A stretch of 64,000 nt of DNA from Daphnia carinata (taxonomy: Eukaryota): NCBI RefSeq assembly GCF_022539665.2, contig NC_081332.1, forward strand, positions 682,001 through 746,000. Reading direction: 5' to 3'. A model generated the notes under the pieces. The model did no database searches and was not told where the DNA came from. It saw nothing but the letters and a program-made list of their open reading frames with translations. A program made the translations under genes and the position numbers. Below are positions 1-41,244 of the stretch, one piece after another (position 1 is the stretch's first letter; each line of letters starts with the position of its first letter).

Positions 1-47
1 ATGAAAGGGAAGCCATAAAAGAGAAAAAACCCTGGAAAAATGATAAG

Positions 48-1466
48 TTGAGAAAGCTGGGATTGGCCTGGGACGAGAGAAACGGGCTAATCAGGTGTTA
101 CGGCCGCCAAGAAAACTGGTTGCGGCTTAACGGTAGAGAGGCAGTAATCCTGTTGCCAGAAAACCACTATTTGACGGGCAAACTCATAGAGCAGACGCAC
201 GAACGGTTGCTGCACACTGGAGTAAGCACGACGATGGTGGAGATACGGCGGACGTTTTGGATTCCAAGACTAAGGCAAACGATCAAGAAGGAATTGAAAA
301 GGTGCATGAAATGTCAGAAACTAGATTCGAGACCTTTCAACGAAGTCCCGGCTCCACTACCGGTAGATCGACTTCAAATGGCGAACCCGTTTAATGTAAC
401 GGGGATAGACTTTGCGGGACCGTTCCCGATAAAACTGACGGCAAGAGGTGGACAAGCAAAGGCCTACATTTGTTTGTTCACGTGTGCGGTAACAAGAGCC
501 GTGCATTTAGAAATGACCACAGACTTGGAGACGGCATCCTGTATTTTTGCACTGAGAAGGTTTTTTGCAAGAAGAGGGGTGCCGAAAGCCATGTATTCAG
601 ATAACGCGAAATGCTTCACACAATCCGCGAAATACCTGAGAGCGGCGTACAAAAGTGAGAACGTGTATAATACACTGGTGGACCTAAATGTCAAGTGGAG
701 ATTCTCCCCGAGCCTGGCCCCTTGGTGGGGCGGGTTCTGGGAGCGGATGGTCCAGACAGTGAAGAGGCTATTATACAAAACGTATGGAAACGAGTGTCTG
801 GAATATGACCTGTTCCAAACGGTGTTAACCGAGATTGAAGATACGATAAACACGAGGCCATTAACGTATGTCTCTGACGACGATAATGAACCTCTAACGC
901 CGAAGCATTTGATCACAGGCTATAGACAAAATCAAAAACACCCGGTAGACGAGGAGGAGAGAGAATATTCAGACAGAATACGTCTAACCAAGCGGGAGAA
1001 AACTAGAAGAAACCTGCTAGCAAATTGGTGGGGAGATTTCTATCAAGAATATGTGGCAGACCTCGAGAAGTTCCACTGTCCAACGCCGGGTAGAACAAAA
1101 CAAGTTGAGGTGGGACAAGTGGTGCTGATACACGACGAGAAATCCAAGAGAACGAAATGGAAAGTAGGAAGAGTGGCCAAATTATACCCGGGCTCAGATA
1201 ACAAGTTCAGGAGAGTAGCAGTATTAATTGCAAATAAGGGTTCAGGGAAAGGGTCAATACCCATATACCGGGACATTAAGTGTCTTTACCCGTTAGAGTT
1301 ACACGCAGGGACGATAGACGATGACCATCAAAATACTTCACCGTTCCAAGACACTGAAGACTTGGACAGTTCGGACTCTGAGTTGGACGAGGGTCCAACG
1401 GGGGGAGTGTCGGAAAATCCGACGTCCAACACTGTCCAAGGGGACGGTGAAGAGATAGACGAGTAG
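48..1466 (+). CDS. BEL/Pao Pol C-terminus: HHCC zinc domain, DDE integrase, DUF5641-type tail (5' end lies outside the window)
   Basis: Motifs HERLLH..CMKC, GIDFAGP, CLFTCAVTRAVHLE, SDNA, APWWGGFWER, NTRPL, LYPLE, all typical of BEL/Pao integrases. Confidence 0.92.
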   Translation: MRKLGLAWDERNGLIRCYGRQENWLRLNGREAVILLPENHYLTGKLIEQTHERLLHTGVSTTMVEIRRTFWIPRLRQTIKKELKRCMKCQKLDSRPFNEVPAPLPVDRLQMANPFNVTGIDFAGPFPIKLTARGGQAKAYICLFTCAVTRAVHLEMTTDLETASCIFALRRFFARRGVPKAMYSDNAKCFTQSAKYLRAAYKSENVYNTLVDLNVKWRFSPSLAPWWGGFWERMVQTVKRLLYKTYGNECLEYDLFQTVLTEIEDTINTRPLTYVSDDDNEPLTPKHLITGYRQNQKHPVDEEEREYSDRIRLTKREKTRRNLLANWWGDFYQEYVADLEKFHCPTPGRTKQVEVGQVVLIHDEKSKRTKWKVGRVAKLYPGSDNKFRRVAVLIANKGSGKGSIPIYRDIKCLYPLELHAGTIDDDHQNTSPFQDTEDLDSSDSELDEGPTGGVSENPTSNTVQGDGEEIDE

Positions 1467-2582: not shown

Positions 2583-2609
2583 ACGTGATAACCGCTACAC
2601 TATGAGAAC
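2583..2609 (-). pseudogene. 5' part of a tRNA-Val(TAC) gene truncated at the element A junction
   Basis: ACGTGATAACCGCTACACTATGAGAAC matches 3660-3686 exactly; the rest is replaced by element A sequence. Confidence 0.85.
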
Positions 2610-2712
2610 GTTTAATTTATGTCACCAGCAACGGTCTTAATCCAATCATGACGAAATCAGGAAATTCCAAATTAATAGTCGTCTTTCACATTTGCTTTTC
2701 ACTTAAATGTCT

Positions 2713-2785
2713 TGTTCCCACCCAGGATCGAACTGAGGACCTTCAGCGTGTTAGGCCGACGTGATAACCACTACACTATGGGAAC
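2713..2785 (-). tRNA. tRNA-Val(AAC)
   Basis: GTTCCCATAGTGTAGTGGTTATCACGTCGGCCT-AAC-ACGCTGAAGGTCCTCAGTTCGATCCTGGGTGGGAACA folds as a full cloverleaf. Confidence 0.95.
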
Positions 2786-2853
2786 GCATTTCAGACAACT
2801 ATTACAGCCAAATATACCAACAGCAATTGACCTGATGAACATTCAACACTACT

Positions 2854-2926
2854 CGTACGAGGTGGGGGTCGAACCCACGACCAATTTATTACCAATCTTT
2901 TCCTCTAACGACTGAGCTAGCCAGGA
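2854..2926 (-). pseudogene. tRNA-Lys-like pseudo-tRNA (A and B boxes kept, anticodon and acceptor stems broken)
   Basis: GGCTAGCTCAGTCG.TAGAG ... GGTCGTGGGTTCGACCCCCAC resembles metazoan tRNA-Lys(CTT). The anticodon position reads GGT and the stem does not pair. Confidence 0.7.
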
Positions 2927-3254
2927 CACATGAACGATGAATCCTCTGTCAACCATGTATTTTTCGGTGTTTGAAATTTTCAGATTATCCGTCTAAAATC
3001 TAGTTTTCAACTTACCAAACATCCCTAAACTTATTATAAATCGTTAATGAGTTATTTCGTGAGTGAAATAAGTCTAGTTACATGTGTTCACGGCCAGGCA
3101 AACGGTACCAGCAAACGAAACCCAATACTGAATCTACCCATCGGTGTAGTAGTTCCTTTTTGTAGAGAACAATGAAGCAATATGAAATCAAAACTGTAAT
3201 AAACGTTAATGATGTTTACCATATGCATGATTTTGCGCAAAATTACAACAACGG

Positions 3255-3342
3255 GCCTCTGTGGCGCAATTGGCTAGCGCGTTCGGCTGTTACGAATTTC
3301 GTCGATACCGGAAGGCTGGTGGTTCGAGCCCACCCAGGGGCG
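3255..3342 (+). tRNA. tRNA-Asn(GTT) with a 14-nt intron (3293-3306)
   Basis: Canonical Asn body GCCTCTGTGGCGCAATTGGCTAGCGCGTTCGGCT-GTT-A / ACCGGAAGGCTGGTGGTTCGAGCCCACCCAGGGGCG, with an insertion at position 37/38. Confidence 0.9.
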
Positions 3343-3613
3343 ATGCAATGAAGTGCAAACAAATATGGACACTGCACACCGATTGCACTATCTTTTTTTG
3401 GAAGCTTCATAATTATTTGCCTATATCTTGGCCTAGTACTAAGTAATGGAAAACCACATATGCGCTAAATACAACCAGGCTGTCGTAAAGTTAGTTAATG
3501 TTGTCCCGTGGCATTCATGTCATTGATGTCAAACAAATTTGGTTGCCTTACAGACTTACAGATGGCGGTGACCTCACGAATCAATGAGTCAATCTTGTAA
3601 AATGCAAACCGAT

Positions 3614-3686
3614 TGTTCTCACCCAGGGTCGAACTGAGGACCTTCAGCGTGTAAAGCCGACGTGATAACCGCTACACTATGAGAAC
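3614..3686 (-). tRNA. tRNA-Val(TAC)
   Basis: Full cloverleaf, anticodon arm TCGGC-TT-TAC-AC-GCTGA. Confidence 0.95.
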
Positions 3687-3789
3687 GTTCAATTTATGTC
3701 ACCAGCAACGGTCTTAATCCAATCATGACGAAATCAGGAAATTCCAAATTAATAGTCGTCTTTCACATTTGCTTTTCACTTAAATGTCT

Positions 3790-3862
3790 TGTTCCCACCC
3801 AGGATCGAACTGAGGACCTTCAGCGTGTTAGGCCGACGTGATAACCACTACACTATGGGAAC
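3790..3862 (-). tRNA. tRNA-Val(AAC)
   Basis: Identical to 2713-2785. Confidence 0.95.
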
Positions 3863-3930
3863 GCATTTCAGACAACTATTACAGCCAAATATACCAACAG
3901 CAATTGACCTGATGAACATTCAACACTACT

Positions 3931-4003
3931 CGTACGAGGTGGGGGTCGAACCCACGACCAATTTATTACCAATCTTTTCCTCTAACGACTGAGCTAGCCA
4001 GGA
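3931..4003 (-). pseudogene. tRNA-Lys-like pseudo-tRNA, copy 2
   Basis: Identical to 2854-2926. Confidence 0.7.
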
Positions 4004-4331
4004 CACATGAACGATGAATCCTCTGTCAACCATGTATTTTTCGGTGTTTGAAATTTTCAGATTATCCGTCTAAAATCTAGTTTTCAACTTACCAAACATC
4101 CCTAAACTTATTATAAATCGTTAATGAGTTATTTCGTGAGTGAAATAAGTCTAGTTACATGTGTTCACGGCCAGGCAAACGGTACCAGCAAACGAAACCC
4201 AATACTGAATCTACCCATCGGTGTAGTAGTTCCTTTTTGTAGAGAACAATGAAGCAATATGAAATCAAAACTGTAATAAACGTTAATGATGTTTACCATA
4301 TGCATGATTTTGCGCAAAATTAATTTAATGG

Positions 4332-4418
4332 GCCTCTGTGGCGCAATTGGCTAGCGCGTTCGGCTGTTAGTGTAGGGTTGTTACCGGAAGGCTGGTGGTT
4401 CAAGCCCACCCAGGGGCG
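4332..4418 (+). tRNA. tRNA-Asn(GTT) with a 13-nt intron (4370-4382)
   Basis: Same exons as 3255-3342 except T-loop TTCAA; intron GTGTAGGGTTGTT at position 37/38. Confidence 0.9.
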
Positions 4419-4689
4419 TAGCAATGAAGTGCAAACAAATATGGACACTGCACACCGATTGCACTATCTTTTTTTGGAAGCTTCATAATTATTTGCCTAT
4501 ATCTTGGCCTAGTACTAAGTAATGGAAAACCACATATGCGCTAAATACAACCAGGCTGTCGTAAAGTTAGTTAATGTTGTCCCGTGGCATTCATGTCATT
4601 GATGTCAAACAAATTTGGTTGCCTTACAGACTTACAGATGGCGGTGACCTCACGAATCAATGAGTCAATCTTGTAAAATGCAAACCGAT

Positions 4690-4762
4690 TGTTCTCACCC
4701 AGGGTCGAACTGAGGACCTTCAGCATGTAAAGCCGACGTGATAACCGCTACACTATGAGAAC
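4690..4762 (-). tRNA. tRNA-Val(TAC)
   Basis: As 3614-3686 with one substitution at position 38 (C>T). Confidence 0.93.
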
Positions 4763-4865
4763 GTTCAATTTATGTCACCAGCAACGGTCTTAATCCAATC
4801 ATGACGAAATCAGGAAATTCCAAATTAATAGTCGTCTTTCACATTTGCTTTTCACTTAAATGTCT

Positions 4866-4938
4866 TGTTCCCACCCAGGATCGAACTGAGGACCTTCAGC
4901 GTGTTAGGCCGACGTGATAACCACTACACTATGGGAAC
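4866..4938 (-). tRNA. tRNA-Val(AAC)
   Basis: Identical to 2713-2785. Confidence 0.95.
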
Positions 4939-5006
4939 GCATTTCAGACAACTATTACAGCCAAATATACCAACAGCAATTGACCTGATGAACATTCAAC
5001 ACTACT

Positions 5007-5079
5007 CGTACGAGGTGGGGGTCGAACCCACGACCAATTTATTACCAATCTTTTCCTCTAACGACTGAGCTAGCCAGGA
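5007..5079 (-). pseudogene. tRNA-Lys-like pseudo-tRNA, copy 3
   Basis: Identical to 2854-2926. Confidence 0.7.
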
Positions 5080-5290
5080 CACATGAACGATGAATCCTCT
5101 GTCAACCATGTATTTTTCGGTGTTTGAAATTTTCAGATTATCCGTCTAAAATCTAGTTTTCAACTTACCAAACATCCCTAAACTTATTATAAATCGTTAA
5201 TGAGTTATTTCGTGAGTGAAATAAGTCTAGTTACATGTGTTCACGGCCAGGCAAACGGTACCAGCAAACGAAACCCAATACTGAATCTAC

Positions 5291-5563
5291 TGTCAGAAAT
5301 AACGACACCGAACTAGATTAACTAGTTTATTCGAGGCGAACACAGCGACGAGAAGAATATTGAGTTGAGTGAACGAGAGAGAGAAAATACTGCACGAGAT
5401 GGTTGAAACCGCAGGACGTCGACTGACCATTAGCAAAAAAAAGGGGGAGAGAAAGGGGCAAAAAAAGGGGGGGTAAGCGTCCAAGTTCTAGATTGCGAAA
5501 CTGTGGCGTACAGTGATGCCAAATATGAGTGAGAAAATTTAAGTCTGAATGTAATTTTCGACA
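5291..5563 (-). repeat. 273-bp 3' LTR of element B
   Basis: TGT...ACA ends; the tRNA-array sequence is interrupted precisely at 5290/5291. Confidence 0.88.
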
Positions 5564-5584
5564 TACTCCCGGCCCGAGAGTGTA

Positions 5585-8500
5585 TTATTCTTCCGCCAAT
5601 AACCGGATCCGTTCCTTTGCTGCAAGGGCTGCTTGACGTGGGGGGCGAGGTGATGGAGTTGGATCTGAAGAGACGGTTTGAATCGGATAATGTGGAGAAG
5701 CTTCGGACGTCTCAGTGATTTCTAATGGATATAATTTTGAGACGGGGCGGTTCGTCTTTCCTTCGGCGGTGCGAATTTCAGCAATGCGGGTTTCTCCATC
5801 TGGGCTGACGATGAGCTTCTCTATAATGGCCAACTTCCAGTCTATTCTAGGCCCTTCGTTGTGAACTAGTACAACGTCGCCAACCTTGGCGCTGGATTCA
5901 AAATGTTTTCCGGAAACGATGTGACGTTCGCGTAGGCTGGTTAAGTAGTCCCTCTGCCAGCGTTTCCAAAAGGACTTCAGAATGCGTTGTCGACGAGAAA
6001 ACATATTTAGCAGATGAGATGGTTTCTCGCCAAAGGTGGGGTCCAGTAGCTCTTCGTCGGTGGCTGGATCGTAGGGAAAGCGAGTTAGGCGGTCTCCGTA
6101 AAGAAGGTGAGAGGGTGTAAGTGCCTGAGGATCACGCAAATCGGATGACACGTAGGTGAGAGGGCGATCGTTAAGAATGGTCTCGATTTCCGCGACGATT
6201 ATGCGAAACTCATTAAACTTGAGTCGCGTACGACCGAGCATTTTCTTTAGAGCTTCTTTGGTGAGACCGACGAGACGCTCCCAAAAACCACCATACCAAG
6301 GGGCGCGCTTTGGGATGAAACGCCATTCGATTTGGTTGTCTGAAAGGTATTTGACGACTTCAGTGCTCTCGTAGAGTCTTTTTAGCATTCGGGCGGCGCT
6401 TTCAAAGGTGGTCGCGTTGTCTGATAGTACCATCCTCGGCTGGAAATGGTGAGTTATGAAGCTCCTAAAGGCTAAAATGAAATTAGCTGTTGTAAGGTCC
6501 TCTACCAGCTCAAGGTGGATGGCGCGGGAAGTAGTGCAAGTGAAGAGGCAAATATAAGCTTTTGATTCTTCCTGACCAGGTAGAGCTCGGATGGGAAATG
6601 GGCCGGCAAAATCAATTCCGGTCACGGCAAATGCCCTATCGCCACGGACGCGAAAACTAGGTAGACTGGCTGAGTTTGGAGCTCGGTATGGAGGTCCGTT
6701 CACCCGGCGGCAGGTTGTACAAAGTCGCACGACAGCTTTCACCTGTTGTCTGATGGAGGATATCCAAAAACGTTGGCGGATATGACAAATGGTGGAAGCT
6801 GCGCCAGAGTGTAGAGCACGTTCATGATAGAATCGTATGATGATCTCCGAAAGCTTAGAATTCTTAGGGATAAGAATAGGGTTCTTCGCGTCACTGGATA
6901 GATCAGCATTAGTTAAACGTCCTTGGCAACGAATTATGGAATTATTGTCAATATAAAGGTCCAGCTGAGATACCAATGAAGGGCGGCGTCCTCGTTTGTC
7001 ACCACAGAGGTAATCGTATTCAGCTGCGAGGAACCGGAATTGGAAGGAGTGAATCCATTTGATCTCAGCTTGATGGAGCTCATTAGTAGATAGAAATCCC
7101 TGTATCCATTTTTCTTTCTTCTGGCGAAAATTGTATAGTTGGCGGAATAAAACAGCTGTTGTTCTCTTCAAAGAAGTCCAGTTGAAACGGCTAATGTCCA
7201 TGACTTTTGCGATATCGATTGTGAGCGGAAGACGAGTTGGAGCCGTTTTGGTAGAAATGTCCATTAAATGAAGGATCTTAACTTGATTCAGCCTCGATAC
7301 GCTCCATTGTGGCCAATCTTCGCGAGATGGTAACCAAGAGGGTCCGTTTATCCAAATTGGGGATGCTTGAAGCTGTTGTAGAGTAATGCCTCTGGTTAGT
7401 AGGTCTGCGGGGTTTGATGTAGTGGGGCAATAGTTCCAAGTAGCCAGATGAAGTCGATTGAAGGCTTGGATTGTGGCGATGCGGTTGGAAACAAAAGGAT
7501 TTTTGAGTCGATCAGCTTTTGAAAGCCAATATAAAACAATTTGACTATCTGACCACATAAAAATCTCCAAAAGAATGTTAAGGGACTTGAAAGCCGTTAT
7601 GATAGTAGTTGCCAGACGAGTGCCGATAATCGCCGCCATCAGTTCCAGTTGGGGTAGAGTTAGCTGTGGAGTATTTCCTTTCAACGGGGCTACTCTAGCC
7701 TTTGACATGACGAATGCTGTATCTTGACCATCCAGAAGATACGCAACCGCGCCGTATGCTTGCTGACTGGCGTCAACAAATACGTGGAGTGAGTTCACCC
7801 GAGATCGAGTTCCAAAATAGGAACGGCGAATCTTTGGTTTTGCATTGACTAGTGCGTTAGCCAGACTGTTCCATTTGTCAGCGAAGGGAGAAGGTAATGG
7901 ATCGTCCCATTCTAGTTTTTCTTTCCAAATTTGTTGAATAAGTATGCGTGCCGGGATGGAGAGCGGTGAAATAAAACCCAGAGGGTCGTAGATGGAGGCG
8001 ACTGCTCGTAGTAGATCACGCTTCGTAGCTTTTGGCGTACAAAACTGTGGAAGGCTGAAATGTGGAAGCTGTAGTTGGTCGGTCGTGCGATCCCACAATA
8101 ATCCAAGAGCTTTTGTAAGAGACGAAGCGTCGGCTACCCCGTCAAGAATAGCGCGATTGTTAAGAGATGCGTCGCTGAATGCCCAAGAATGCAAGGATAA
8201 AGATGCAGCTTGAAATGTTGAAATAGATTCAGCATAGTAAATCGAGGCTTCAGCTGTAGTTTCACTGCCGGACATTAAGTTATCCACGTAAATGTTGGAC
8301 TCGATATCAGTACTGACGGGGGATGAGTAACGTTGTAGATGCTTCTTGATCACCGAATTTAATATGAAGGGACTGCTACTTGCGCCGAATGGAATTACCT
8401 TGAAACGATATATTGCGAAGTCAGACTCTGGATCGTTGTCATCACTTAGCCAGAAGAAACGGACAAAATCCCGATCGGCTTCGTAAAGTTGAACCTTATG

Positions 8501-10873
8501 GAAGGCCTTTTCGATGTCGGAGAAAAACCCAATGCGATGAACGCGAAAACGAAGAAGAATGTGCAGCATGTTGTTTTGCAGGGGTGGACCAGTAAGTAGA
8601 CAGTCGTTCAGGCTCGCTCCAGATCGAGTCCTACATGAGCAGTCGTATACAATTCGTATAGGAGTAGTTATAGAATCCTTTTCAACTGGAAAATGTGGAA
8701 TGTAATGGCAGCCTTTTGGAGTTTGGAGAGTACGAGGCACCTTTTCTATAAATTCAGCCTCCAACTGGTCGCGGATGATCTTGCTATAAAGTTGCAGCAT
8801 GTTTGGCTTTTTCAATAAGCTGTGGACGGTGTGGCGAGTTCGGCGCTGACAAATTAGGTAGTTAGACGGCAGCACCGGATGTTCAGTTTTCCATGGCAAA
8901 CGCGCAGTGTATCGGTTGCAATGATAGGAGATGCACGAAGACTGATACGTCGCAGCTGAGTCGTTACTTTCGTCGTCCGGAACAATTCCCAAAACTTCTA
9001 GGGACCATAATTGACTGACGTCATCATGTTGGATTGCGGAGATATGGTAGGAGGAGTTTTGAGAGGAAAGAAACTTATCCGGAAGTGGGCCGGAGACTAG
9101 ATAACCAATAAAGCTGCTTACTGCTGTGGGGCCTGTCCCGTGAATATTGCCGTCTTCAACAATTGACCAATAGGAGTCAGCTCCAATCAAGATATCCACT
9201 GTAAATGGGGTGTTTGTTGTTGGTGGATGAGCTAAATGGAGATCCTGTAGGTGAGGTAACGTAGAAAGGATTGTACGATACGGGTCTTCCAATGGTTCCA
9301 CTATTGTTTCAAGAACCACGGCCTGAATTTGAACACGATCGCCATTAAGACCGTTTAGCCAAAATTGGACCACGTCGTAGTAGCTGGGGTCTAGATATCC
9401 TCCAGATAGACCTTGGAAGCCGGAAAGAGAGAGTAGTACTCGTCGTATTGGATGGAGCCGGAGAATATTCGCCAGACGCGTTGTAATGAACGTAAGCTGT
9501 GATCCATCATCAATAAGAAGGTTAGCGAGCTGAGATTTTGAATGGGAACAAACTGTAGCTACAGCGGTTTTAAGAAAAACGAAAGGCATTGAACTTGTTT
9601 TGATTGCTGCCACGATCTTTGAGTGTATTTTGTTCAGGAGACAGCCAGTATGGGTTGAAGAGGGCTTGGCAAGGAAGTTGGTGGAGGTATTCTTGTCAAG
9701 ATGAAGGCTGGTGTGATGAGGTTGCTGACAACGTTGGCAGCGATAACGAGACGGGCAGTCTTTAATGTTAGTGTGCCCTGCATGGAGGCAGTTTAGACAA
9801 AGCTTTTTGACCTTAGCGACCTTTGCGCGTTCTTCTGGCCCTCTTACTTCACTGCACTGTGTTGGATAGTGCTCGCCTGAACAGTAAGGGCATAACTTCT
9901 TTTTAACCGGATGGGATGACGCGAAAAGTACTTGCTTTGTCGGACGATTTGGTGTAAGCTGGTCATAGCTGTCACTCATAATATCTATCTCTCTTCTAAT
10001 GGCCGCTCTGAGCTCGTCGAGAGACCACTCTGAGTTGCCCTGATGTCGCGTGAGATTTCTACGCACATCACAAGAAAGCTTGTCAATGAGGAGGCAAACC
10101 AAAAGATCGCCATAAGAGTTAGGAGTGGTACCGAGAGCTTCGAGGCCGCGGATATGGGATTCGAGTTGATCGGCAAAGGAACGGAGACTGGAACGGGTTG
10201 AAGCTGCAACGGGCAGATTGATGAGAGCCTTGAAATGAGCAGTAACGACTTTCTTTGGTTGACTGTAGCGCTCACGTAAAAGATCCTTGGCTTTGACGTA
10301 GTTGTCGTTAGATGAAGTGAGTCCAAGAAGAGCGGCTTTAGCTTCCCCTTCGAGTTTTGAAATAAGGAAATTAAATTTTGTGGCGCCACTGTAGCTTTTC
10401 GCATCTACTTCTGCTTCAAATACGTCCCAAAAACTGGACCATAGAAGAATGTCTCCCTTGAAAACAGGTAAGTCGAATTTTGGAAGGGCACTGGCGGACG
10501 GAGTTGGCGCGACAGGAACGAGTGGAAGTTGAGGAGCAAGTGCAGCTGTAGCAGCATCTTCTTCAGATTGGAACGCTGCCAGTTGGAATTCAAAGTTGTC
10601 TCTGGCGTCACGAAGAATTTGGTTGGTGTTATCAGCGCCATCCATCTCTTCCTCTAAATCTGATGGATCCGTTTGAGTAAAAATGGCATTGTCAAGTGTT
10701 TCAATAGCCGCAATTTTCGTCTCCAGATCGGCAAGTTTTCTACGAAGCTCATGAATCTTTTGCACCCTAGTTTGATCGTTATTAGCAACAATGTCAGCCA
10801 TTTTATTCACCATACGTGTAGCAGCTGAACGATTGCCACCGCGTTGGGCGGTGAGACGAGCGCGGTCTGCCAT
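5585..10873 (-). CDS. BEL/Pao Gag-Pol polyprotein, 1762 aa (Gag, three Cys/His knuckles, aspartic protease, RT, RNase H, integrase)
   Basis: LPKFDLPVFKGD..W..FW Gag motif, CPYC..H..C / CLNC..H..C / CQRC..HH..LH, LLIDDGSQ, SDIEKAF, PFGASSSPF, YVDN, HVFVDAS..AYG, GIDFAGP, WYGGFWER, LYPLE. Confidence 0.97.
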   Translation of the reverse strand: MADRARLTAQRGGNRSAATRMVNKMADIVANNDQTRVQKIHELRRKLADLETKIAAIETLDNAIFTQTDPSDLEEEMDGADNTNQILRDARDNFEFQLAAFQSEEDAATAALAPQLPLVPVAPTPSASALPKFDLPVFKGDILLWSSFWDVFEAEVDAKSYSGATKFNFLISKLEGEAKAALLGLTSSNDNYVKAKDLLRERYSQPKKVVTAHFKALINLPVAASTRSSLRSFADQLESHIRGLEALGTTPNSYGDLLVCLLIDKLSCDVRRNLTRHQGNSEWSLDELRAAIRREIDIMSDSYDQLTPNRPTKQVLFASSHPVKKKLCPYCSGEHYPTQCSEVRGPEERAKVAKVKKLCLNCLHAGHTNIKDCPSRYRCQRCQQPHHTSLHLDKNTSTNFLAKPSSTHTGCLLNKIHSKIVAAIKTSSMPFVFLKTAVATVCSHSKSQLANLLIDDGSQLTFITTRLANILRLHPIRRVLLSLSGFQGLSGGYLDPSYYDVVQFWLNGLNGDRVQIQAVVLETIVEPLEDPYRTILSTLPHLQDLHLAHPPTTNTPFTVDILIGADSYWSIVEDGNIHGTGPTAVSSFIGYLVSGPLPDKFLSSQNSSYHISAIQHDDVSQLWSLEVLGIVPDDESNDSAATYQSSCISYHCNRYTARLPWKTEHPVLPSNYLICQRRTRHTVHSLLKKPNMLQLYSKIIRDQLEAEFIEKVPRTLQTPKGCHYIPHFPVEKDSITTPIRIVYDCSCRTRSGASLNDCLLTGPPLQNNMLHILLRFRVHRIGFFSDIEKAFHKVQLYEADRDFVRFFWLSDDNDPESDFAIYRFKVIPFGASSSPFILNSVIKKHLQRYSSPVSTDIESNIYVDNLMSGSETTAEASIYYAESISTFQAASLSLHSWAFSDASLNNRAILDGVADASSLTKALGLLWDRTTDQLQLPHFSLPQFCTPKATKRDLLRAVASIYDPLGFISPLSIPARILIQQIWKEKLEWDDPLPSPFADKWNSLANALVNAKPKIRRSYFGTRSRVNSLHVFVDASQQAYGAVAYLLDGQDTAFVMSKARVAPLKGNTPQLTLPQLELMAAIIGTRLATTIITAFKSLNILLEIFMWSDSQIVLYWLSKADRLKNPFVSNRIATIQAFNRLHLATWNYCPTTSNPADLLTRGITLQQLQASPIWINGPSWLPSREDWPQWSVSRLNQVKILHLMDISTKTAPTRLPLTIDIAKVMDISRFNWTSLKRTTAVLFRQLYNFRQKKEKWIQGFLSTNELHQAEIKWIHSFQFRFLAAEYDYLCGDKRGRRPSLVSQLDLYIDNNSIIRCQGRLTNADLSSDAKNPILIPKNSKLSEIIIRFYHERALHSGAASTICHIRQRFWISSIRQQVKAVVRLCTTCRRVNGPPYRAPNSASLPSFRVRGDRAFAVTGIDFAGPFPIRALPGQEESKAYICLFTCTTSRAIHLELVEDLTTANFILAFRSFITHHFQPRMVLSDNATTFESAARMLKRLYESTEVVKYLSDNQIEWRFIPKRAPWYGGFWERLVGLTKEALKKMLGRTRLKFNEFRIIVAEIETILNDRPLTYVSSDLRDPQALTPSHLLYGDRLTRFPYDPATDEELLDPTFGEKPSHLLNMFSRRQRILKSFWKRWQRDYLTSLRERHIVSGKHFESSAKVGDVVLVHNEGPRIDWKLAIIEKLIVSPDGETRIAEIRTAEGKTNRPVSKLYPLEITETSEASPHYPIQTVSSDPTPSPRPPRQAALAAKERIRLLAEE

Positions 10874-10966
10874 AACAAATACCAGAAATTTAGGACAGGC
10901 TTAGAAATTTGCAATACCCACGAGTTAAGCGCCGTGCGTAGCGGCGTGGGTAGTGCCGTGCGCAGC

Positions 10967-11002
10967 CACGAGGGACAACACGAGGGACAACACGAGGGAC
11001 AA
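10967..11002. repeat. 12-bp tandem repeat (CACGAGGGACAA) x3 in the 5' UTR of element B
   Basis: Read directly from the sequence. Confidence 0.9.
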
Positions 11003-11122
11003 AACACGAGATTTGTGGACAATCACTGGTGAAATGGTGACGCAATGAATGATGAGATGAAGATGAAATGATATAAGTCTCGCTGTTTTGAACAGACCCT
11101 AGTCAATATTGCCGAGCATGGG

Positions 11123-11222
11123 NNNNNNNNNNNNNNNNNNNNNNNNNNNNNNNNNNNNNNNNNNNNNNNNNNNNNNNNNNNNNNNNNNNNNNNNNNNNNN
11201 NNNNNNNNNNNNNNNNNNNNNN
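11123..11222. other. Assembly gap (100 N)
   Basis: Run of N; the true distance between the flanks is unknown. Confidence 1.
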
Positions 11223-11981: not shown

Positions 11982-14000
11982 ATGTTAACGAAGAAAAAAG
12001 ATCCAAAAACTTGGAACTCTAATGGAACAACAACAGGGAAATACTTGAAGAAAGAGGCGCCTTCAGATGTACCAAGTAAAAATACCATTCCACTTAATGC
12101 AAATTTTAGTCTATGTCAACTAACTAGCGAAAAATGTATAACAGTCATCAATGTTTGGACCTCGACGAGGACCGTCGACGCTCTGAAGAGCAAGTCTCAG
12201 GCAGCCAAGAAGCTGAGCGGTTCCACCCAGAGCCTGGAAGTGGTGTCCAACATCAAGCACGGTGGCAAGCAGCAGATCCAGACTGGTTACGAAGGGAGGT
12301 ACATACCTGCCAGCGAAGTCAAGGCTGAGCAGCAGCAGCAGCAGCAGCAGCAAAGTCATTTGGTAGGTAGCTTTAAAATATGTTTGTATAATGGTGATTC
12401 GTCATTTGGCATGTTTGCTTGCATTGGCACTTAGCTTGAGTGAATGTTCAAATCCTTGTTTGTGTTGCACGGCTTTTGCCCCCCAATTAGTCTGCCTCCT
12501 TTGACGAGGCCTACGCTGATTACGCCGAGGTATCTGAGAGTGACTCGCTTTCTCTGGCAAGAGGTCTGGGCCTTGAGGGTCATGTTCTGATGAAACCAGG
12601 GTCTGAGCAGTTTCCACCTGTTGCCAACTCTCCTTTATGCCACCCATCACAAAATCCCCCGGCCAATCCACTGAAACTCGTTCTGGTTGATCCCGACTCC
12701 CAGGTATGGCTTTCCTAATTTAGCTTTTTGTTTTATTGTTTCTTAGTCTTGTCTGCTGGTGCACTTATTTCTCTCTCCATGGTGTGGCTGGCAAACGAAT
12801 GAATCTCACATTTCTTTGTTTTCCACAACAAAATGAGCTAAGAAATTTCCTTATTTTGACAATTACAGTTGAGCTCTATGCAGGCAGCTGAACAACAACA
12901 ACAGCAACACATTTATCCTCTTTACCTGTCGGCTTCGGCACGTGAACAGCAACAGCAATTGTTGGTGCTGCAACAACAGTTGGCCCAATTAAGGCTTAGT
13001 GTCCAACAGCATCAACAGCAGCAGCAACAAATTCACCAACAACATTCACCTACCTATGCCAACATCCCTCTTTTACTTTCTAGTAGCGTTAGCGCATCAC
13101 AATCGTCTCTGGCCAGTAACAGCAGCTCCCAACAACAAGAAAATCCTGTCTATCAGAACCTAAGTAAATCAACGAATGCAGGAGCAACAGGTGCTGCAGC
13201 GGTACCAACGACATCGACCAATACGAGTCAAGATAGTGGCTCAGAAGAATTTCCCTTACCACCTGGTTGGTCCATAGATTACACCTTACGTGGACGAAAG
13301 TACTACATTGATCATAACACGCAGACAACGCATTGGTCTCATCCGTTGGAGAAGGAAGGCTTACCCACTGGTACTCATTCTAAATTTGATCCTTTGAATT
13401 CTAATTGAATCATAATTTCTAGGTTGGGAACGAGTTGAATCGAGCGAGTTTGGCATTTATTACGTAAATCACACGACTCGCCACGCCCAATATGAACATC
13501 CTTGTGCACCTCGTTACATTACGTCAGGGTCCTCATCTTTGGCGGATGCGCAAATGCGGCCGTCGAGACCAATGCCTCCAGCCCCTCGCCACACTGAATT
13601 TCATGCACCACCACAAGTGTTGGTGCCGGCCAATCCATACCTTTACGAAGAGATTCCATATTGGCTCCAGTTCTATTCTCGTGCAGCACCTGAACACGAT
13701 CACAAGTTGCGTTGGGAGCTTTTCCGGCTGCCGGAACTCGACTGCTACGACAACGTTCTTAAACGACTCTACAAACAGGAATTGGAGACGATCGTCATGA
13801 ACTACGAAGCTTACCGATCCGCAATGGCGCGTGAACTTGAGCGGAGAAGAGCTGAAGGTCACAACAGACATTTTCCGGGACACCAACGTCAACAACAACC
13901 ACAACAAGCTGGGATGTTGCATCAAGTACCACAACAGCAGCCGTCTAGAAGTCATCTGAAAGAGAAAGCTTTGGCTGGAGACCTTGAAACTAAAGTTTAA
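11982..14000 (+). CDS. sav: Salvador (Hippo pathway scaffold: two WW domains plus SARAH); exons ~11982-12075, 12145-12362, 12869-13370, 13423-14000
   Basis: N-terminus MLTKKK...GKYLKKE, WW1 [35 protein letters not shown]2 [58 protein letters not shown], with GT-AG introns. Confidence 0.95.
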
Positions 14001-21909: not shown

Positions 21910-22965
21910 TTAAGGCCTGAAAGCGCCACGGTAAATACGTTCGTATCCTGTCGACTTGTAGGCAGTGGGCTTGTAGACAGGGACATCGTAGGCTGCCGGG
22001 GATTTGTATGCTGTCTGTTGGTACGAAGTTTCATAGCTGGGCTTGTATTCCGGCTTGTATTCCGGCTTGTATTCCGGCTTGTACTCTGGCTTGTAATCGG
22101 GCTTGTAATCAGCTTGGTATTCCGGCTTGTAATCAGCTTGGTATTCCGGCTTGTATTCGGGTTCGTACTCGGGCTTGTATTCTGGCTTGTAGCTGGGTTT
22201 GTATTCGGGTTTGTAATCTGGCTTGTAGTCCGCCTCGTATTCCGGCTTATACTCGGGTTGGTATTGTGGCTTGTAGTCGGGCTTGTAGTCGGGCTTGTAG
22301 TCGGGCTTGTAGTCGGGCTTGTAGTCGGGCTTGTAGTCGGGCTTGTAGTCGGGCTTGTAGTCGGGCTTGTAGTCGGGCTTGTAGTCGGGCTTGTAGTCGG
22401 GCTTGTAGTCGGGCTTGTAGTCGGGCTTGTAGTCGGGCTTGTAGTCGGGCTTGTAGTCGGGCTTGTAGTCCGGCTTGTAGTCCGGCTTGTAGTCCGGCTT
22501 GTAGTCCGGCTTGTAGTCCGGCTTGTAATCGCCCTTGTAGCCGCCATGGTTGTAATCCCAAGCATGTTCGCCATGACCCTCATAAGCGTCGGCCCACTTG
22601 ACCTATGATTTAATGACATCAAAAAATCAAATAAAGCATTTAGAAATCGTTTGAATAAAAATAATTGGATTAAATGTATACCTTTGTGCGGAAGTTGCCG
22701 TCTTTGTATTGTTCATGACGTGACACGTGATGATCGGAATTGCCACGATTAAAACCGAATTCATATTCACCTTCCGCTGGAACGTTAGCGTACTGGAAAT
22801 AGCCTTCCAACTTGTCGTAAGGACCGTACGGTTTCACTTCGTCAGCGAATGAGATGGCCAAAAGACCCAAAAGGACCAAACTCGTCTGAATACAAATTCC
22901 AATTCAAAACATGAGATATTCTAAATATTTCAAGAATGAATATTTACCACGTAATAGATGTTCAT
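21910..22965 (-). CDS. Secreted cuticle-type protein with a long (YKPD/YKPE)n tail, 3 exons
   Basis: MNIYYV|TSLVLLGLLAISFA...YFQYANVPAEGEYEFGFNRG...FRTK|VKWADAYEGHGEHAWDYNHG followed by YKPD repeats to TAA at 21910; TATA box near 23050. The true reading frame is not among the listed ORFs. Confidence 0.85.
22040..22530. repeat. Coding 12-bp minisatellite (GGGCTTGTAGTC and variants)
   Basis: A run of perfect copies at ~22268-22470, with variant copies on both sides. Confidence 0.97.
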
Positions 22966-27021: not shown

Positions 27022-27587
27022 TTTCTGAATGGTTTTTAACACAAAGCTGTGAGTAACAACAAGGAAGTTCCACCAAAAAGTTTCGGAAACTGTTGATTTT
27101 CTGGGAGGTAAAATTATCGGTACAAAAACGGCCAAAACGCTGAATCGAGTTCAATTCATTCAAGGAGAAAAATTTACCACTTTTAAATTACTCATTTGAA
27201 TGAGAGAGGTGAACCGGTAACAAGAATAACTACAAAAAGCACCGCCAGAGGGCTGCGAAAGTTAGATGTTCGAAGGCGATCAGATACCGCCCTAGTTCTA
27301 ACCATAAACGCGTTAAATAATTGTCGCTTAACAATTCGGTTCCGATATGAATCGGTTAACAAGGTTGTGACATGCCGGTATGACAATCCGTTTTACATAA
27401 AAAAAAAAAAAAATGGCGGAAAAAAAAAAAAAAATCGCACTTTTTTCTCTTTTTTCTACCCGTAGCCATCTATCAGTCGGTTTCGTTATTACAGGCATGT
27501 AAGCAATTTCAGTTAATTGTATCCCATTAGCAGTTAATTGAGTAGCGTGGCTGGAGAACAACGCGTGGCTGGAGGAACAATTGAAAA

Positions 27588-28330
27588 ATGGATAAGATAA
27601 TAAAACAAAAAAATGGTAAGTATAAACATTATTATATTGGTTTTCAATTATTAATTATTGTTTATTAGATCAAATTATGAAGCTGCAGGCCCAATTATTG
27701 GAACAACACAAAATATTAGATAACAGCAAAGCTAAGGATGGTAAGGCCTAATACGTAATGATTCTATTTATTTGCTTTTATTCATTTGTGTTTTGTAGCT
27801 CAAATTTTGAGTCTACAAGCTCAGCTAGGGGAAAAGAACAAATTGGAACGGAACAGTTTCCAAACAGTGAATGAGGTTTTTCCAAACTCATCCCTAACTG
27901 AACATGAGGATGAGTTGGCATTAGGCGAACACAGTCAGGTACCTAAACTTTTCAAATAAGAATGCAAAATAAGTACAGAATTTTAACAAACAATTATTTA
28001 TTGTTTAGTTATTCAGTCTACCACCTGACAGTGTGTTAAAGTTAAATTCTGTTAGTGCTGCACTAAAAGAATTGTTAGTAATAAGTCCATGCAGCGAAGG
28101 AAGTGAACAATTGTGGGACCGTATTTGGGCTGAAAATGGGTGTGGTACGGAAACCCAGAAATAGCACAAGTTCAACATAAAACATGAATTAGGTACTTTT
28201 CGGTTTTTTGTCTATTGAAAAAGTATTTTTAATGCTATTATTTTGCATTCACAGAATTTTAGTGGGGGATCAAGTCAAGTCTGGAAGTGTTACAGGATGG
28301 AAGAGTGAGCCTACAGTTGAAAAACACTGA
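27588..28330 (+). pseudogene. Spliced coiled-coil gene remnant inside the element arm (copies also at ~39212 plus, ~32088 minus, ~47737 minus)
   Basis: MDKIIKQKN|DQIMKLQAQLLEQHKILDNSKAKD|AQILSLQAQLGEKNKLER...|LFSLPPDSVLKLNSV...LWDRIW with GT-AG introns; this copy has an in-frame TAG near 28162. Confidence 0.55.
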
Positions 28331-29084
28331 AAGTGCATTACCATTAAGGTATGAGGTAAAGTAATAGAGTATGCAAATTGTCTAATGAGAAGTACCATCT
28401 TGTGTGAATGAATCCTGTGTAACAGCAATCCTCTATAGTTCTGTCACAGCTAGAAGCCTCAAATAATTCTGCTTCCCTTGCTAAAGAACAACTTGTCCTT
28501 TACACTCAGAGTGTTGGTGAAGCTGGGTACTTAAATGGCCCTAAAGATGTTTCACTTCACTGGCATTGCAGCGATGAACATCATACATGGACTCTTCAGG
28601 TATGAAAGGAATTTTCTTGAAAAATTTTTGAATTTATGATGCTTTTCTCCTCCTTTTTGCCAACCATGTCTAATCAAAAAAAAAAAAAAAAATTATCCAA
28701 TAAGAAAGGATTTTCAGCATACTGGGAACACAACTATCAACAATGCAACTTTCTAGGGGTGCTATTTTATCATTCAAGAGCCTTATACAATGATTTTCAT
28801 CTGCAATTTGTATGGCCTTTCCCAAGCTTCTGCCAGAAGTTGAATCTATAAGTCATGTAAGTCACATGAGCAACAATTGAGATGCTTAATGGTGTTGTTT
28901 TTCTTTTCTCAGCATAGGTTAAAAGTAACATTGGATCTGAAAAGATTCTTGGTTGGGGCAAGACACTGAATAAATTGTAATGATTGAATGGATGACATGA
29001 CATTTCTATACTTAATTTGGATTCCCGAGACGGTATTTTATATTTAAAAAATTGAAGTGCATATCTGGGCTCCCTTCCTTTCCG

Positions 29085-29410
29085 TAGCCCCGTTTCCCCT
29101 TGACTCGTAATAAGCCCGTAGGGGGTCATGCCCCTACTGTACGGTATATATAAAAACAAAATATACCGAGGTTTGGAGGGCTCTGGCCGGAAAGGGGACG
29201 TGGGGGTCCGCTTAGTCCGATGATGTGTTCACGGAGGGCGACGTGGCTACCCACAAATCCGAACTAAAGGTTAATCGCTCCTGTAAAAATGTTCCAAATC
29301 TTCAGCTCTTTTTCCGGCTTCTCTTAGCCAATCACCGGGTAATCTCCCCGGTGGGTCAACAAGGCAGTGTCCCCCCCTGCCTGGGTTGACGGCAACTTTT
29401 GAAAGGGCTA
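29085..29410 (-). ncRNA. Candidate structured RNA, module A (copy in left arm of element 1)
   Basis: Reverse complement of 30279-30604; a GC-rich island with many hairpins. Confidence 0.4.
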
Positions 29411-29625
29411 TTGTGCCTTTTTAAAGTTGCAAAAATAATTGTAATGTGCAGAGAATTGTCAATAAAATTTTTATTATAAAATATTTTTTGCAAAATTTGT
29501 TTATTTCATTGTCTAGTATTCAAGTATTCAATTATTATTAATTACACTCTTTGAATTGTTCAACTTAGATTCAAGGAACAACGTGTAATATCTGGATATT
29601 TTTTGAAGTAATTTGTATTTTGTTT

Positions 29626-29695
29626 TACTCGTATGGGAACCGATCCCCAGACATTCAGCGTGTAACGCCGATGCTCTAACATTGAGCCACGAGAT
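29626..29695 (-). other. Degenerate tRNA-like cloverleaf with a Val(TAC)-like anticodon arm
   Basis: CTCGTGGCTCAATGTTAGAGCA-TCGGCGTTACACGCTGA-ATGTCTGGGGATCGGTTCCCATACGAG. Confidence 0.6.
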
Positions 29696-29792
29696 ATATC
29701 TAAATAGTTTATTATCGCATATCATATGTTATCGTCTAGGATGTTTATGCAGTCTTTCACAACTATATGTTTATCTTTCTATTGCTTGCATA

Positions 29793-29863
29793 AGATTCAT
29801 AGTTCTGTGGTAGAGCCTTTAACTGTCATACCTGTTAGCCTGGGTTCAAACCTCAGTAGATGT
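29793..29863 (+). other. Degenerate tRNA-like element
   Basis: A-box-like TAGTTCTGTGGTAGAGC and a perfect T arm CTGGG-TTCAAAC-CTCAG. Confidence 0.5.
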
Positions 29864-29980
29864 GTAAAAATAAGGTAGAATAAATGTAGAAGAGTATATT
29901 GCAGAATTGCATTTCAGTTTTATTCTAAGTGTAAATGCAAGTCCACAAGTGACTAGAAAAAAGCCAACTTGTCATCATAT

Positions 29981-30049
29981 GATTCATGGCTCACTAGTAG
30001 AGTATCGGCGCGGTATGCCGAACATCCAGGGTTCGTTCCCTGGAGAATA
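29981..30049 (+). other. Degenerate tRNA-like cloverleaf
   Basis: TGGCTCACTAGTAGAGT, anticodon-type hairpin TCGGC-GCGGTAT-GCCGA, T arm CCAGGG-TTCGTT-CCCTGG. Confidence 0.6.
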
Positions 30050-30278
30050 ATAGAATGCTTACAGATAAACGATAAACCAATGGAAACAATGCTTACCATC
30101 AAAGGTGACTAAAACAAATAAAGCAAAGCAAAAAAAAAAAGTTGATAAATGTAATGTGTGAACACTGTTAACACAGACAATGAAATAAACAAATTTTGCA
30201 AAAAATATTTTATAATAAAAATTTTATTGACAATTCTCTGCACATTACAATTATTTTTGCAACTTTAAAAAGGCACAA

Positions 30279-30604
30279 TAGCCCTTTCAAAAGTTGCCGT
30301 CAACCCAGGCAGGGGGAGACACTGCCTTGTTGACCCACCGGGGAGATTACCCGGTGATTGGCTAAGAGAAGCCGGAAGAAGAGCCGAAGATATGGAACAT
30401 TTTTACAGGAGCGATTAACCTTTAGTTCGGATTTGTGGGTAGCCACAGAGCTCTCCGTGAACACATCATCGGACTAAGCGGACATCCACGTCCCCTTTCC
30501 GGCCAGAGCCCTCCAAACCTCGGTATATGTTGTTTTTATATATACCGTACAGTAGGGGCATGACCCCCTACGGGCTTATTACGAGTCAAGGGGAAACGGG
30601 GCTA
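30279..30604 (+). ncRNA. Candidate structured RNA, module A (~326 nt)
   Basis: Stems GTCAAC/GTTGAC with AGGCAG/CTGCCT, CACCGGG/CCCGGTG, GCCGGAA/TTCCGGC, TTAGTTCG/CGGACTAA, CGGTATAT/ATATACCG, GTAGGGG/CCCCTAC, closed by TAGCCC/GGGCTA. Confidence 0.45.
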
Positions 30605-33600
30605 CGGAAAGGAAGGGAGCCCAGATATGCACTTCAATTTTTTAAATATAAAATACCGTCTCGGGAATCCAAATTAAGTACAGAAATGTCATGTCATCCA
30701 TTCAATCATTACAATTTATTCAGTGTCTTGCCCCAACCAAGAATCTTTTCAGATCCAATGTTACTTTTAACCTATGCTGAGAAAAGAAAAACAACACCAT
30801 TAAGCATCTCAATTGTTGCTCATGTGACTTACATGACTTATAGATTCAACTTCTGGCAGAAGCTTGGGAAAGGCCATACAAATTGCAGATGAAAATCATT
30901 GTATAAGGCTCTTGAATGATAAAATAGCACCCCTAGAAAGTTGCATTGTTGATAGTTGTGTTCCCAGTATATGAAAATCCTTTCCAATTGGATAAATTTT
31001 ATTTTTAGATTAGACCTGCTTGGCAAAAAGGAAGAGAAATTCTTTGTCATAAATTCAAAATTATTTGAAGAAAATTCCTTTCACACCTAAAGAGTCCATG
31101 TATGATGTTCATCTCTGCAACGGCAGCAAAATCTTAGGGCCATTTAAGTACCCAGTTTCACCAACACTGTGAACGTAAAGGACAAGTTGTTCTTTAGCCA
31201 GAGAAGCAGAATAATTGAGGCTTCTAGCTGTGACAGAACTATAAAGGATTGCTGTTGTATCAGATTCATTAACACAAGATGGTACTTCTCATTAGACAAT
31301 TTGCATCACTCTATTACTCTACCTCACACCTTAACGGTAATGCACTCTCAGTGTTTTTTCAACTACAGGCTGACTCTTCCATCCTGTAACACTTCCAGAC
31401 TTGACTTGATCCCCCCCTAAAATTCTGTGAATGCAAAATAATAGCATTAAAAATACTTTTTCGATAGACAAAGAACCGGGAAGTACCTAATCCATGTTTT
31501 AGGTTGAACTTGTGCCATTTCTCGGTTTCCGTACCATACCCATTTTTGGCTCAAATATGGTCCCACAATTATTCAGTTCCATCGCTGCATGGACTGATTA
31601 CGAACAATTCTTTTAGTGCAGCACTAACAGAATTTAAATTTAACACACTGTGTGATGGTGGACTGAATAACTAAACAATAAATCATTGTGTGTTAAAATT
31701 CTATGCTTATTTTGCATTCTTATTTGAAAAGTTTAGGTACCTGACTGTTTACGCCTAATGCCAACTCATCCTCACGTTCAGTTAGGGATAAGTTTGGAAA
31801 AACCTCCTTCACTGTTTGGAAAGTGTCCCGTTCTAACTTGTTTTTTTTTCCCCAGTAACTGAGCTTGTAGACTCAAAGTTTGAACTAAAAAACAAAAATG
31901 AATAAAACAACACAAATACAATCATTATGTGTTACCATCCTTAGTTTTGTTGTCACCTAATATTTTCTGCTGTTGCAATAATTGAGCCTGCAGGTTCATA
32001 ATTAGAGCCAAAAAACAATAATTAATAATTGAAAACTAATGTAATAATCTTTGTACTTACCATCCTTATCTTTTATTATCTTATCCATTTTAACATATTT
32101 TTCTCCAGCCACGCGTTTTTCTCCACCCACGCTACTCGACTAACTGACAATGGGATCCAATGGACTCAAATTGACATGCCAGTAATAACGATTCTGACCG
32201 GTAGCTGGCTACGGATCGTAAAAAAAAAAATCACAATTTTTTTTTTTTTTTTTTTGTTTAAAACGGATTGCCATAAGTACTGTCTTATCCATAATTTTAG
32301 AAGACATCCTTTATGTCACATCAATTAAAATACTAATCTTTCTAATAGATTCATCCAATTGTGAGCAAGAGTCAGTTTTGGGATTAACAGCCCTCAACAG
32401 ATACAACAACGAACCATATTGAAGTTGTAGCACAAAGTTCGTACAGCCGTGGTTATTCCCGAACACCTATGCAATAGGAACTGCTTGACAGGCAAAAGGT
32501 ACGCTAAAATCCCATAAATTTTGGTGTAATATATATATTTTGCCATCCAGGCTTTGTGGCAACTGCCATGTAGCTTCTTATTGCATGATAGCACAAGTAT
32601 ACTCCATCATCATGATGTTGCAAATGGTAATGCATTTCTACAGAGTTAGCTTGGCTTTCTAATTAAAGTCAAACATTTGTCATATTAGGCAGAACATTCC
32701 TTAAAGACTACAGTGATATGGCGAGCAGGACTTCGGAAAATGTAGCTGGCCTTAAAGCGTCACCTCTGGGTCATGGCCAACCTTGGCACCGAAATTCATC
32801 AAGGCAAGTCAATCCTACTCAAGTGCTAGATATTTTACTGATGAGATGATTCTGTTTGTGTATATAGGATATGGTTTGGACCCTACCTACATGAAAGCAT
32901 ATCATCCTACACTTTTTCCAAGAGTTCTTGATGACGTCTAAGCTGCCTATCCTTATCCCCATGACGATTGTTAAAACAAGGTTTAATTAAGGTAAATTGA
33001 AGACCTTCTTTTACATTAATTTTATAACTGTTTTGAATGATGCAGGCTGGCGATTGGGAAGACATTTAATACACAATGGAAAGTCACGGCATGGAATGTT
33101 AATTGCCTGTCGCCTTTTTATCCAAACTGATGGTTTGTGGTAAAATCTTTGACATCACCAGAAACGGACTGTTGCCAAAGTTTTTGAGCCAGCACGTGTC
33201 CGCACGTCACGCCTCCCAAAAGTCGGACTTAGTTATTGATTCAGTCATTAATAAACCGTTTGGTGCACTGGGATCGAGCCCTAAAAACGGCCATCTGTCG
33301 CCATCTAGGGAAAGTCTAGTTCTGATTAATAAACAAGCCAGATTTCCTTTTTTTTTCAGAAACCTAGATTGCTAGAAAAACAAATGATTTTGGATTTGAA
33401 TTCAAGGCTGATGGCAGAAAACCAGTTTGTTTTCAATTGGAAATAATAGCGGTTCACGGAAAGTATATTTTTTGTCATTTCGAAAATCGAATTAAGAATC
33501 CAAGACTGTTTGACAGGATTAGCTTAGTATCGCACAAACTTTCGTGGCGTTCATTTGAATAATTTCACTGGTTTTTGTTGCATTCGTAGTATTCAAAGGA

Positions 33601-40701: not shown

Positions 40702-41027
40702 TAGCCCCGTTTCCCCTTGACTCGTAATAAGCCCGTAGGGGGTCATGCCCCTACTGTACGGTATATATAAAAACAACATATACCGAGGTTTGGAGGGCTC
40801 TGGCCGGAAAGGGGACGTGGATGTCCGCTTAGTCCGATGATGTGTTCACGGAGGGCTTTGTGGCTACCCACAAATCCGAACTAAAGGTTAATCGCTCCTG
40901 TAAAAATGTTCCAAATCTTCAGCTCTTCTTCCGGCTTCTCTTAGCCAATCACCGGGTAATCTCCCCGGTGGGTCAACAAGGCAGTGTCTCCCCCTGCCTG
41001 GGTTGACGGCAACTTTTGAAAGGGCTA
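40702..41027 (-). ncRNA. Candidate structured RNA, module A (copy in element 2)
   Basis: Reverse complement of 30279-30604 with few substitutions. Confidence 0.4.
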
Positions 41028-41244
41028 TTGTGCGTTTTTAAAGTTGCAAAAATAATTGTGATGTGCAGAGACTTGTCAATAAAATTTTTTTTATAAAAAT
41101 ATTTTTTGCAAAATTTGTATCTTTATTGTCTGTGTTTGTGTTCACACTTTACAGTTATAAACATTTATTTTATTTCCCTTGCTCAATTCACCTTTTTTTT
41201 TTATGCCACCTTTTATGATAAGCATTCTTTCCATTGGTTTATCG

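Follow-up and report, generated by a model that had tools for sequence, protein, structure and literature searches.

Intergenic conversion of tRNA genes is an established process, described for the serine tRNAs of S. pombe (Munz 1982, Amstutz 1985, Heyer 1986, as cited in sections of PMC4090602 and PMC3868979) and also inferred between mouse strains (PMC13169703, in part) and in primates and flies (PMC4981973, in part). The copies of a tRNA are thought to be equalised, introns included (according to a section of PMC4090602). Little is known about the conversion itself, a section of PMC13169703 giving one single-base case, and the sections of PMC3113579, PMC3868979 and PMC13010820 that bear on it contain nothing on tract borders. 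In the literature searched, which leaves most subscription papers (the S. pombe originals included) outside its reach, no tRNA conversion tract was found that includes the leader. The underlying difficulty is that mature tRNAs are nearly devoid of markers, so that it is hard to test whether the likeness of tRNA copies reflects conversion or selection, or a DNA or an RNA template. Pol III elements such as Alu, for their part, can undergo cDNA- or RNA-mediated gene conversion.

In the locus described here, which lies in a stretch of 64,000 nucleotides from Daphnia carinata (the window), a tract around one tRNA-Asn gene of a short tandem repeat has, very probably, been replaced from another locus, whatever the template may have been. 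As in S. pombe, this would be a one-way transfer between non-allelic copies of one isodecoder; it differs in that it concerns a tandem unit in an animal, that the likely recipient lies beside its unconverted twin, and that the tract includes nine plus two bases of non-homologous flank. Like Alu-type replacement it would occur in place and has its borders close to where the transcribed unit begins and ends, but it shows no poly(A), no target-site duplication and no change of length, and its trailer portion stops at +2. In the mouse study the single high-confidence tRNA case rests on one nucleotide, introns having been removed before alignment (PMC13169703, in part), whereas the present tract is delimited by 16 diagnostic positions. 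Conversion of tRNA genes as such is already known; what is new is a clean snapshot with this many markers and with borders outside the gene. In Daphnia Asn genes the distinct intron and leader families of each tandem unit type make donor, recipient and tract borders directly readable, and a genome-wide tally of borders would tell DNA from RNA templates; were the borders to cluster at the transcription start, this would imply an RNA-templated route for tRNA genes, for which the literature searched offers no example.

The tRNA repeat and its setting

The repeat (positions 2583-5290; 2.7 kb, 2.5 units) is sandwiched between two LTR retrotransposons, and its unit contains Val-TAC, Val-AAC, a decayed Lys-like pseudo-tRNA and Asn-GTT (Table 1). 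Two tRNA-Asn genes are present in the 2.5 units visible. The first-pass annotation had described the units, of about 1077 bp, as essentially identical and homogenised. Their near-identity is borne out by self-BLAST (17 mismatches and one gap over 1632 aligned columns), but homogenisation is a stronger term than 2.5 visible units will carry, as a recent tandem duplication explains the identity equally well.

Retroelement sequence cuts both ends of the repeat (at 2583 and at 5290/5291), the left-hand cut lying inside a Val-TAC gene. The LTR edge at 5291 was placed by eye, and at its other end the BEL/Pao element abuts a gap of 100 Ns (11123-11222). The decayed tRNA-like sequence, for which ARAGORN makes no call and Rfam no tRNA call, is nearest to tRNA-Lys among 12 sequences aligned; Rfam matches to YrlA and tmRNA at about 2775-2947 are far under their cut-offs and reflect this decayed tRNA.

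Table 1 Features of the tRNA repeat and the flanking retroelements (positions are those of the window).
Feature	Positions	Strand	Details	Basis
Second LTR retrotransposon, 3′ end of ORF (integrase)	3-1466	+	left of repeat; BEL/Pao-like	shared DUF5641
Repeat unit 1	2583-3659		starts within truncated Val-TAC gene 2583-2610	self-BLAST, repeats
tRNA-Val(AAC)	2713-2785	-	identical copies at 3790-3862 and 4866-4938	Rfam, repeats
Decayed tRNA-like sequence	2858-2927	-	copies at ~3935-4004 and ~5011-5080	alignments
Unit-1 leader	3246-3254	+	5/9 positions differ from unit 2 (-3, -6, -7, -8, -9)	
tRNA-Asn(GTT), unit 1	3255-3342	+	14-nt intron 3293-3306	ARAGORN with introns; Rfam RF00005, 51.9 bits
Trailer common to both units	3345-3399	+	0 differences; ends in T7 run 3393-3399 (second copy 4469-4475)	
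tRNA-Val(TAC)	3614-3686	-	second copy 4690-4762, one difference (4725)	self-BLAST, Rfam
Repeat unit 2	3660-4735			self-BLAST, repeats
Likely replaced tract	4323-4420	+	-9 to +2 of unit-2 tRNA-Asn, 98 nt: 9-nt leader, both exons, intron, T-loop A, TA	
tRNA-Asn(GTT), unit 2	4332-4418	+	13-nt intron 4370-4382, position 37/38	ARAGORN -i; Rfam RF00005, 51.9 bits
Partial repeat unit 3	4736-5290		truncated by right-hand retroelement upstream of Asn gene	self-BLAST
BEL/Pao LTR retrotransposon	5291-11122	-	ORF 5585-10900; truncates unit 3	Pfam Peptidase_A17, DUF1759, RVT_1, rve

The divergent tract

Sixteen of the 18 differences between the units fall between -9 and +2 of the Asn gene (counting back from its first base and on from its last): five in the leader, eight in the intron, one in the T-loop and two just 3′ of the gene. 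The differing leaders (CAACAAC against ATTTAAT) and 3′ dinucleotides (AT against TA) reported earlier are confirmed in the sequence, and the T-loop difference (G at 3326, A at 4402) is to be added to them. Both of the remaining differences are at Val-TAC, one of them 4 nt upstream of the gene (2613/3690) and the other within it (3649/4725). The tract thus has 16 differences in 99 columns and the remainder 2 in 978 (Fisher p ~1e-15).

It had also been proposed that nearly all the divergence is confined to the pre-tRNA footprint. As a statement about where the differences are concentrated this is correct, but the tract does not take in the whole footprint of the recipient: the units do not differ in the 48 nt that lie between +2 and the first T-run (T7), and that run, to go by its sequence, is the probable Pol III terminator. 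The tract therefore falls short of the pre-tRNA that the recipient itself would produce. A hairpin in the trailer lacks significance, being equalled in folding by 13 and 18 of 200 shuffles, and for that reason its extra pair with the +2 base of unit 1 was not used as an argument about polarity.

The introns

Both Asn genes are interrupted one base 3′ of the anticodon (ARAGORN, Rfam), which is the canonical TSEN-type position. The two introns (14 nt and 13 nt) are indeed different, as had been noted, but to call them unalignable goes too far, in that 6 of 13 positions match when they are anchored at their 3′ ends, including a G at -3 in both. The A-I pair, between a pyrimidine at -6 of the 5′ site and a purine at -3 of the 3′ site, is C and G in both window genes, and this pair is needed for 3′ cleavage (PMC8479045, in part). 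G at -3 is found in all eight copies that have the window's 5′ exon (seven distinct introns) and in 69 of 80 pattern matches; most of the 72 metagenome loci have other exon variants (48 of the 80 rows being one short-D-loop type in GC-rich contigs) and serve only for this count. In position (37/38), length (13-14 nt) and the C at -6 and G at -3 the window introns thus share the features of canonical TSEN introns, but they differ in their host, which is tRNA-Asn(GTT) here, whereas the human intron-only isodecoders named in a section of PMC8479045 are Tyr-GTA, Ile-TAT and Leu-CAA. A literature search, most subscription papers lying outside it, returned no paper on nuclear tRNA-Asn introns in Daphnia. 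The window's Asn introns are probably carried along as neutral passengers, with the one determinant of splicing preserved.

The idea that each unit carries a barcode-like intron of its own has to be given up: the introns are drawn from a few recurring families. At least three are present in the public DNA run X2 (depths 367, 206 and 201), and the intron of locus L016 matches intron 2 at 12 of 13 positions. Among the matches listed, run X2 has a relative of intron 1, likewise of 14 nt (depth 201, with 4 differences over a 73-nt contig), and a third type, of 13 nt (depth 206). No intron-skipping joint occurs among the matches listed for DNA runs X2 and X5, where contigs show presence only; RNA runs X18 and X22, and run X24, gave no matching records at the unit.

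A match in another organism

Public contigs were aligned to unit 1 (24 pieces listed of 123) and to unit 2 (10 listed of 26). In run X2, which is from a different organism (organism B), a 292-nt contig (depth 370.7) equals 4323-4359 and a 110-nt contig (depth 367.1) equals 4344-4420, in each case with 0 differences, so that the two jointly span the whole 98-nt tract, i.e. leader, intron, T-loop A and TA, with overhangs that are unlike the window. The overlap between the contigs is limited to 16 nt of shared exon, and it is from their equal depth that we infer leader and intron to sit on one gene. The depths also add up: subtracting 367.1 from the 1243.8 of the 5′ exon leaves a value close to 890, the depth of the 3′ exon that carries the alternative T-loop base. 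Run X2 also has two contigs of low depth (3.57 and 4.45), and the depth of the tract contigs is about 90 times as great; this suggests that the donor-type Asn family is high-copy, although depth does not measure copy number.

The first-pass annotation had suggested local replacement from another Asn locus, and so exact a match in unrelated flanks, from a non-allelic Asn family of another organism, supports it; the recurrence of one leader and intron in a different flank background, which it had envisaged, is seen in organism B for the unit-2 leader, intron, T-loop variant and TA together (the leader being linked to the intron by matching depth).

The flanks of the X2 contigs resemble those of L060, one of the 72 metagenome-scan loci, which is a collapsed 939-nt tandem unit carrying Asn and Ile-AAT. 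Before 4323, 25 of 30 overhang bases match the L060 flank and 5 match the window; after 4420, the corresponding figures are 19 and 7 of 30 (all counted by eye, the downstream consensus mixing two records at 0.68 agreement). The Asn gene of L060 has TA directly 3′ and an intron identical to intron 2 at 10 of 13 positions, and since its base at -10 is A, as in the window, the 5′ border may be at either -9 or -10. Homology between the spacers of L060 and those of the window was considered and rejected, as 200 of 200 and 57 of 200 shuffles score equally well. The 7-mer ATGAAGT does occur in both trailers (3348-3354 in the window, and 3′ of Asn in L060) with a 2-nt offset, by chance or possibly as a relic of an older exchange.

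The donor family was seen in organism B and L060 only. Among the runs, X1 (organism A; 0.42 of words) covers the window spacers at 99-100% and has no record over 3205-3566 or 4282-4642, but this is no evidence either way, as the contig filter may drop records. A 118-nt record in X1 joins an (AAG)n run to window spacer at 3567, and within 100-155 of L060 a (GAA)n run is followed 10 nt later by the same 7-mer as at 3567-3573 of the window. There is a weak hint that the Asn-Ile and window unit types are joined in the window's species, in which case the donor would be nearby. A search of a viral sequence collection gave 0 matches.

How the tract may have been replaced

One way to arrive at two such different genes without any transfer would be transcription-associated mutagenesis, a hypermutation localised at a tRNA gene that is transcribed. 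The mutation rate of tRNA loci is indeed raised 7-10 times, and their flanks and introns vary in concert (PMC6130373, in part); this may explain the two Val-TAC differences. For the Asn tract, hypermutation is refuted by the X2 match, as it cannot yield an exact match to another family; even at ten times the background, taken from the 2 outside differences, 0.5 changes would be expected in the 24 non-exon sites against 15 observed (P ~5e-20), and we give it practically no chance.

The match also bears on the possibility of a higher-order repeat in which two unit types of long standing alternate, homogenisation having made their spacers alike and spared an island of divergence at leader and intron. 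Relatives of both intron types occur in organism B, implying families older than the units, and the rest of the array lies beyond the 2.5 units visible, both of which speak for such a history. It would, however, leave unexplained a match that is base-exact at both ends to a family in unrelated flanks, and divergence that ends abruptly at -9 and +2, while an old higher-order repeat would itself still require an earlier transfer; we regard it as very improbable.

A quite different kind of explanation is that the assembly is at fault, the gene having been overwritten in register during polishing by short reads that belong to a donor array of high abundance and poor assembly. This would give just such a length-preserving patch centred on the gene; the repeat is near a scaffold gap, and no read or contig of the window's species spans the Asn gene. 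But with aligner defaults (match +1, mismatch -4, clip 5) the running score, which reaches +2 at best over the leader, has dropped to -4 by position -6 and to -16 by -9, so that reads would be clipped near -5. Reaching -9 would take several rounds of polishing, which should also have shifted the 3′ border beyond +2, and unit 1 is untouched, while the units retain their two private single-base differences. An artefact of this sort is therefore improbable.

On balance, the explanation we favour, at slightly better than even odds, is ectopic gene conversion with a DNA template: the unit-2 tRNA-Asn gene, together with nine bases before it and two after, would have been overwritten in place by a copy from another Asn family, which is probably high-copy. 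The gene in unit 1 is then likely to be the unit's earlier gene. Unit 2 would be the recipient because the limits within which it differs from unit 1 and those within which it equals the foreign family coincide (at -9 and +2), which would otherwise require a coincidence. The window's species, too, would have this donor family, whose Asn-Ile tandem unit measures about 0.94 kb. A break in the Pol III gene may have been repaired by pairing of the exons (38 + 36 nt) with a donor copy, the intron being carried along, and the in-register exchange would have run a few bases beyond the homology on both sides, once or repeatedly from the abundant donor. The flanks of the recipient have been kept on both sides, the units being identical outside the tract save for two bases.

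There are features of the tract that such conversion does not readily predict. Instead of ending inside shared homology it has both borders outside the homologous gene, with length kept, and its 5′ border falls where a Pol III transcript could start. In homology-directed repair non-homologous tails are normally trimmed, so that the carriage of 9 + 2 foreign flank bases without change of length is unexpected. A mirror case is provided by two Asn genes of a single contig (L073/L074), which have an identical 16-nt intron and 5′ exon but leaders that are only 13/30 alike and differ already at -1; the shared intron is the classical conversion pattern and speaks for conversion, and the difference at -1 counts against co-transfer of flank bases. 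It should be added that the evidence for replacement in the window is that of a single event.

The 5′ border would also fit a template of RNA, either the donor's pre-tRNA before splicing or cDNA made from it; that border would then be the donor's transcription start at -9 or -10, and the intron would be retained because the RNA was unspliced. The 5′ border falls on an A at -9, amid sequence that is not homologous and with no microhomology beyond, and leader, intron and exons have been transferred together; moreover, of the two LTR retrotransposons that flank the repeat, one has an unbroken ORF that includes reverse transcriptase. Against this, the 3′ border does not correspond to a transcript end: it lies at +2 and lacks CCA, only two trailer bases having moved, while in L060 the first T4 run is some 16 nt past the gene. 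A pre-tRNA that bears its leader and has its trailer trimmed is, besides, not the usual intermediate. A 59-nt internal piece of an intron-bearing Asn gene of the same intron family lies in unrelated sequence in L016 (2488-2546) with both of its ends inside exons, and the literature searched contains no precedent for RNA-templated replacement of a tRNA gene. Human leaders, at about 2-5 nt, are shorter than nine (trailers being 5-15 nt; PMC6130373, in part), and no arthropod leader lengths emerged from the literature search. An RNA or cDNA template is thus conceivable but doubtful. Equally speculative, and in our estimate unlikely, is the broader proposal in which unspliced pre-tRNAs of high-copy donors serve as templates for the in-place overwriting of tRNA genes elsewhere, beginning at the transcription start, so that concerted evolution of Daphnia tRNAs proceeds partly via RNA; if true, the intron and leader families would make each RNA-templated event and its borders readable in genomes. 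The piece in L016, considered by itself, resembles a templated insertion.

Other Asn loci and further features of the window

The contig that contains the mirror case (L074:1-3047 together with L073, 3241 nt in all) is filed in a bacterial MAG of the prokaryote collection, but its genes include one for U2 snRNA and some twelve for tRNAs. Given that U2 gene and the intron-bearing tRNAs, it is evidently eukaryotic and a contamination of the MAG. Introns are called by ARAGORN in its Asn, His, Glu and Tyr genes, and 1696-1779 is, by eye, an intron-bearing Asp gene. As its Asn 5′ exon is that of the window, there may be some animal lineage with introns in unusually many tRNA types.

In L067 a decayed, intronless Asn-like copy lies about 170 nt upstream of an intron-bearing Asn gene, the start of whose intron resembles the beginning of the 3′ exon. 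Homologous multi-tRNA clusters (77% over 741 nt) are found in L014 and L033, with Asn exons identical to the window's and with introns of 25 and 30 nt that have a different 3′ end.

Elsewhere in the window, the exon at 13416-13997 encodes protein that is 100% identical over 99% of its length to D. carinata salvador homolog 1-like. An ORF at 21910-22602 (- strand) consists of some 40 four-residue repeats (YKPD/YKPE), with a 12-nt period and 41.8 copies. One or more repeats recur in the regions 27378-31934, 39029-41252 and 46713-48040, as several scattered copies in direct and inverted orientation that reach 891 nt in length and are 91-97% alike.
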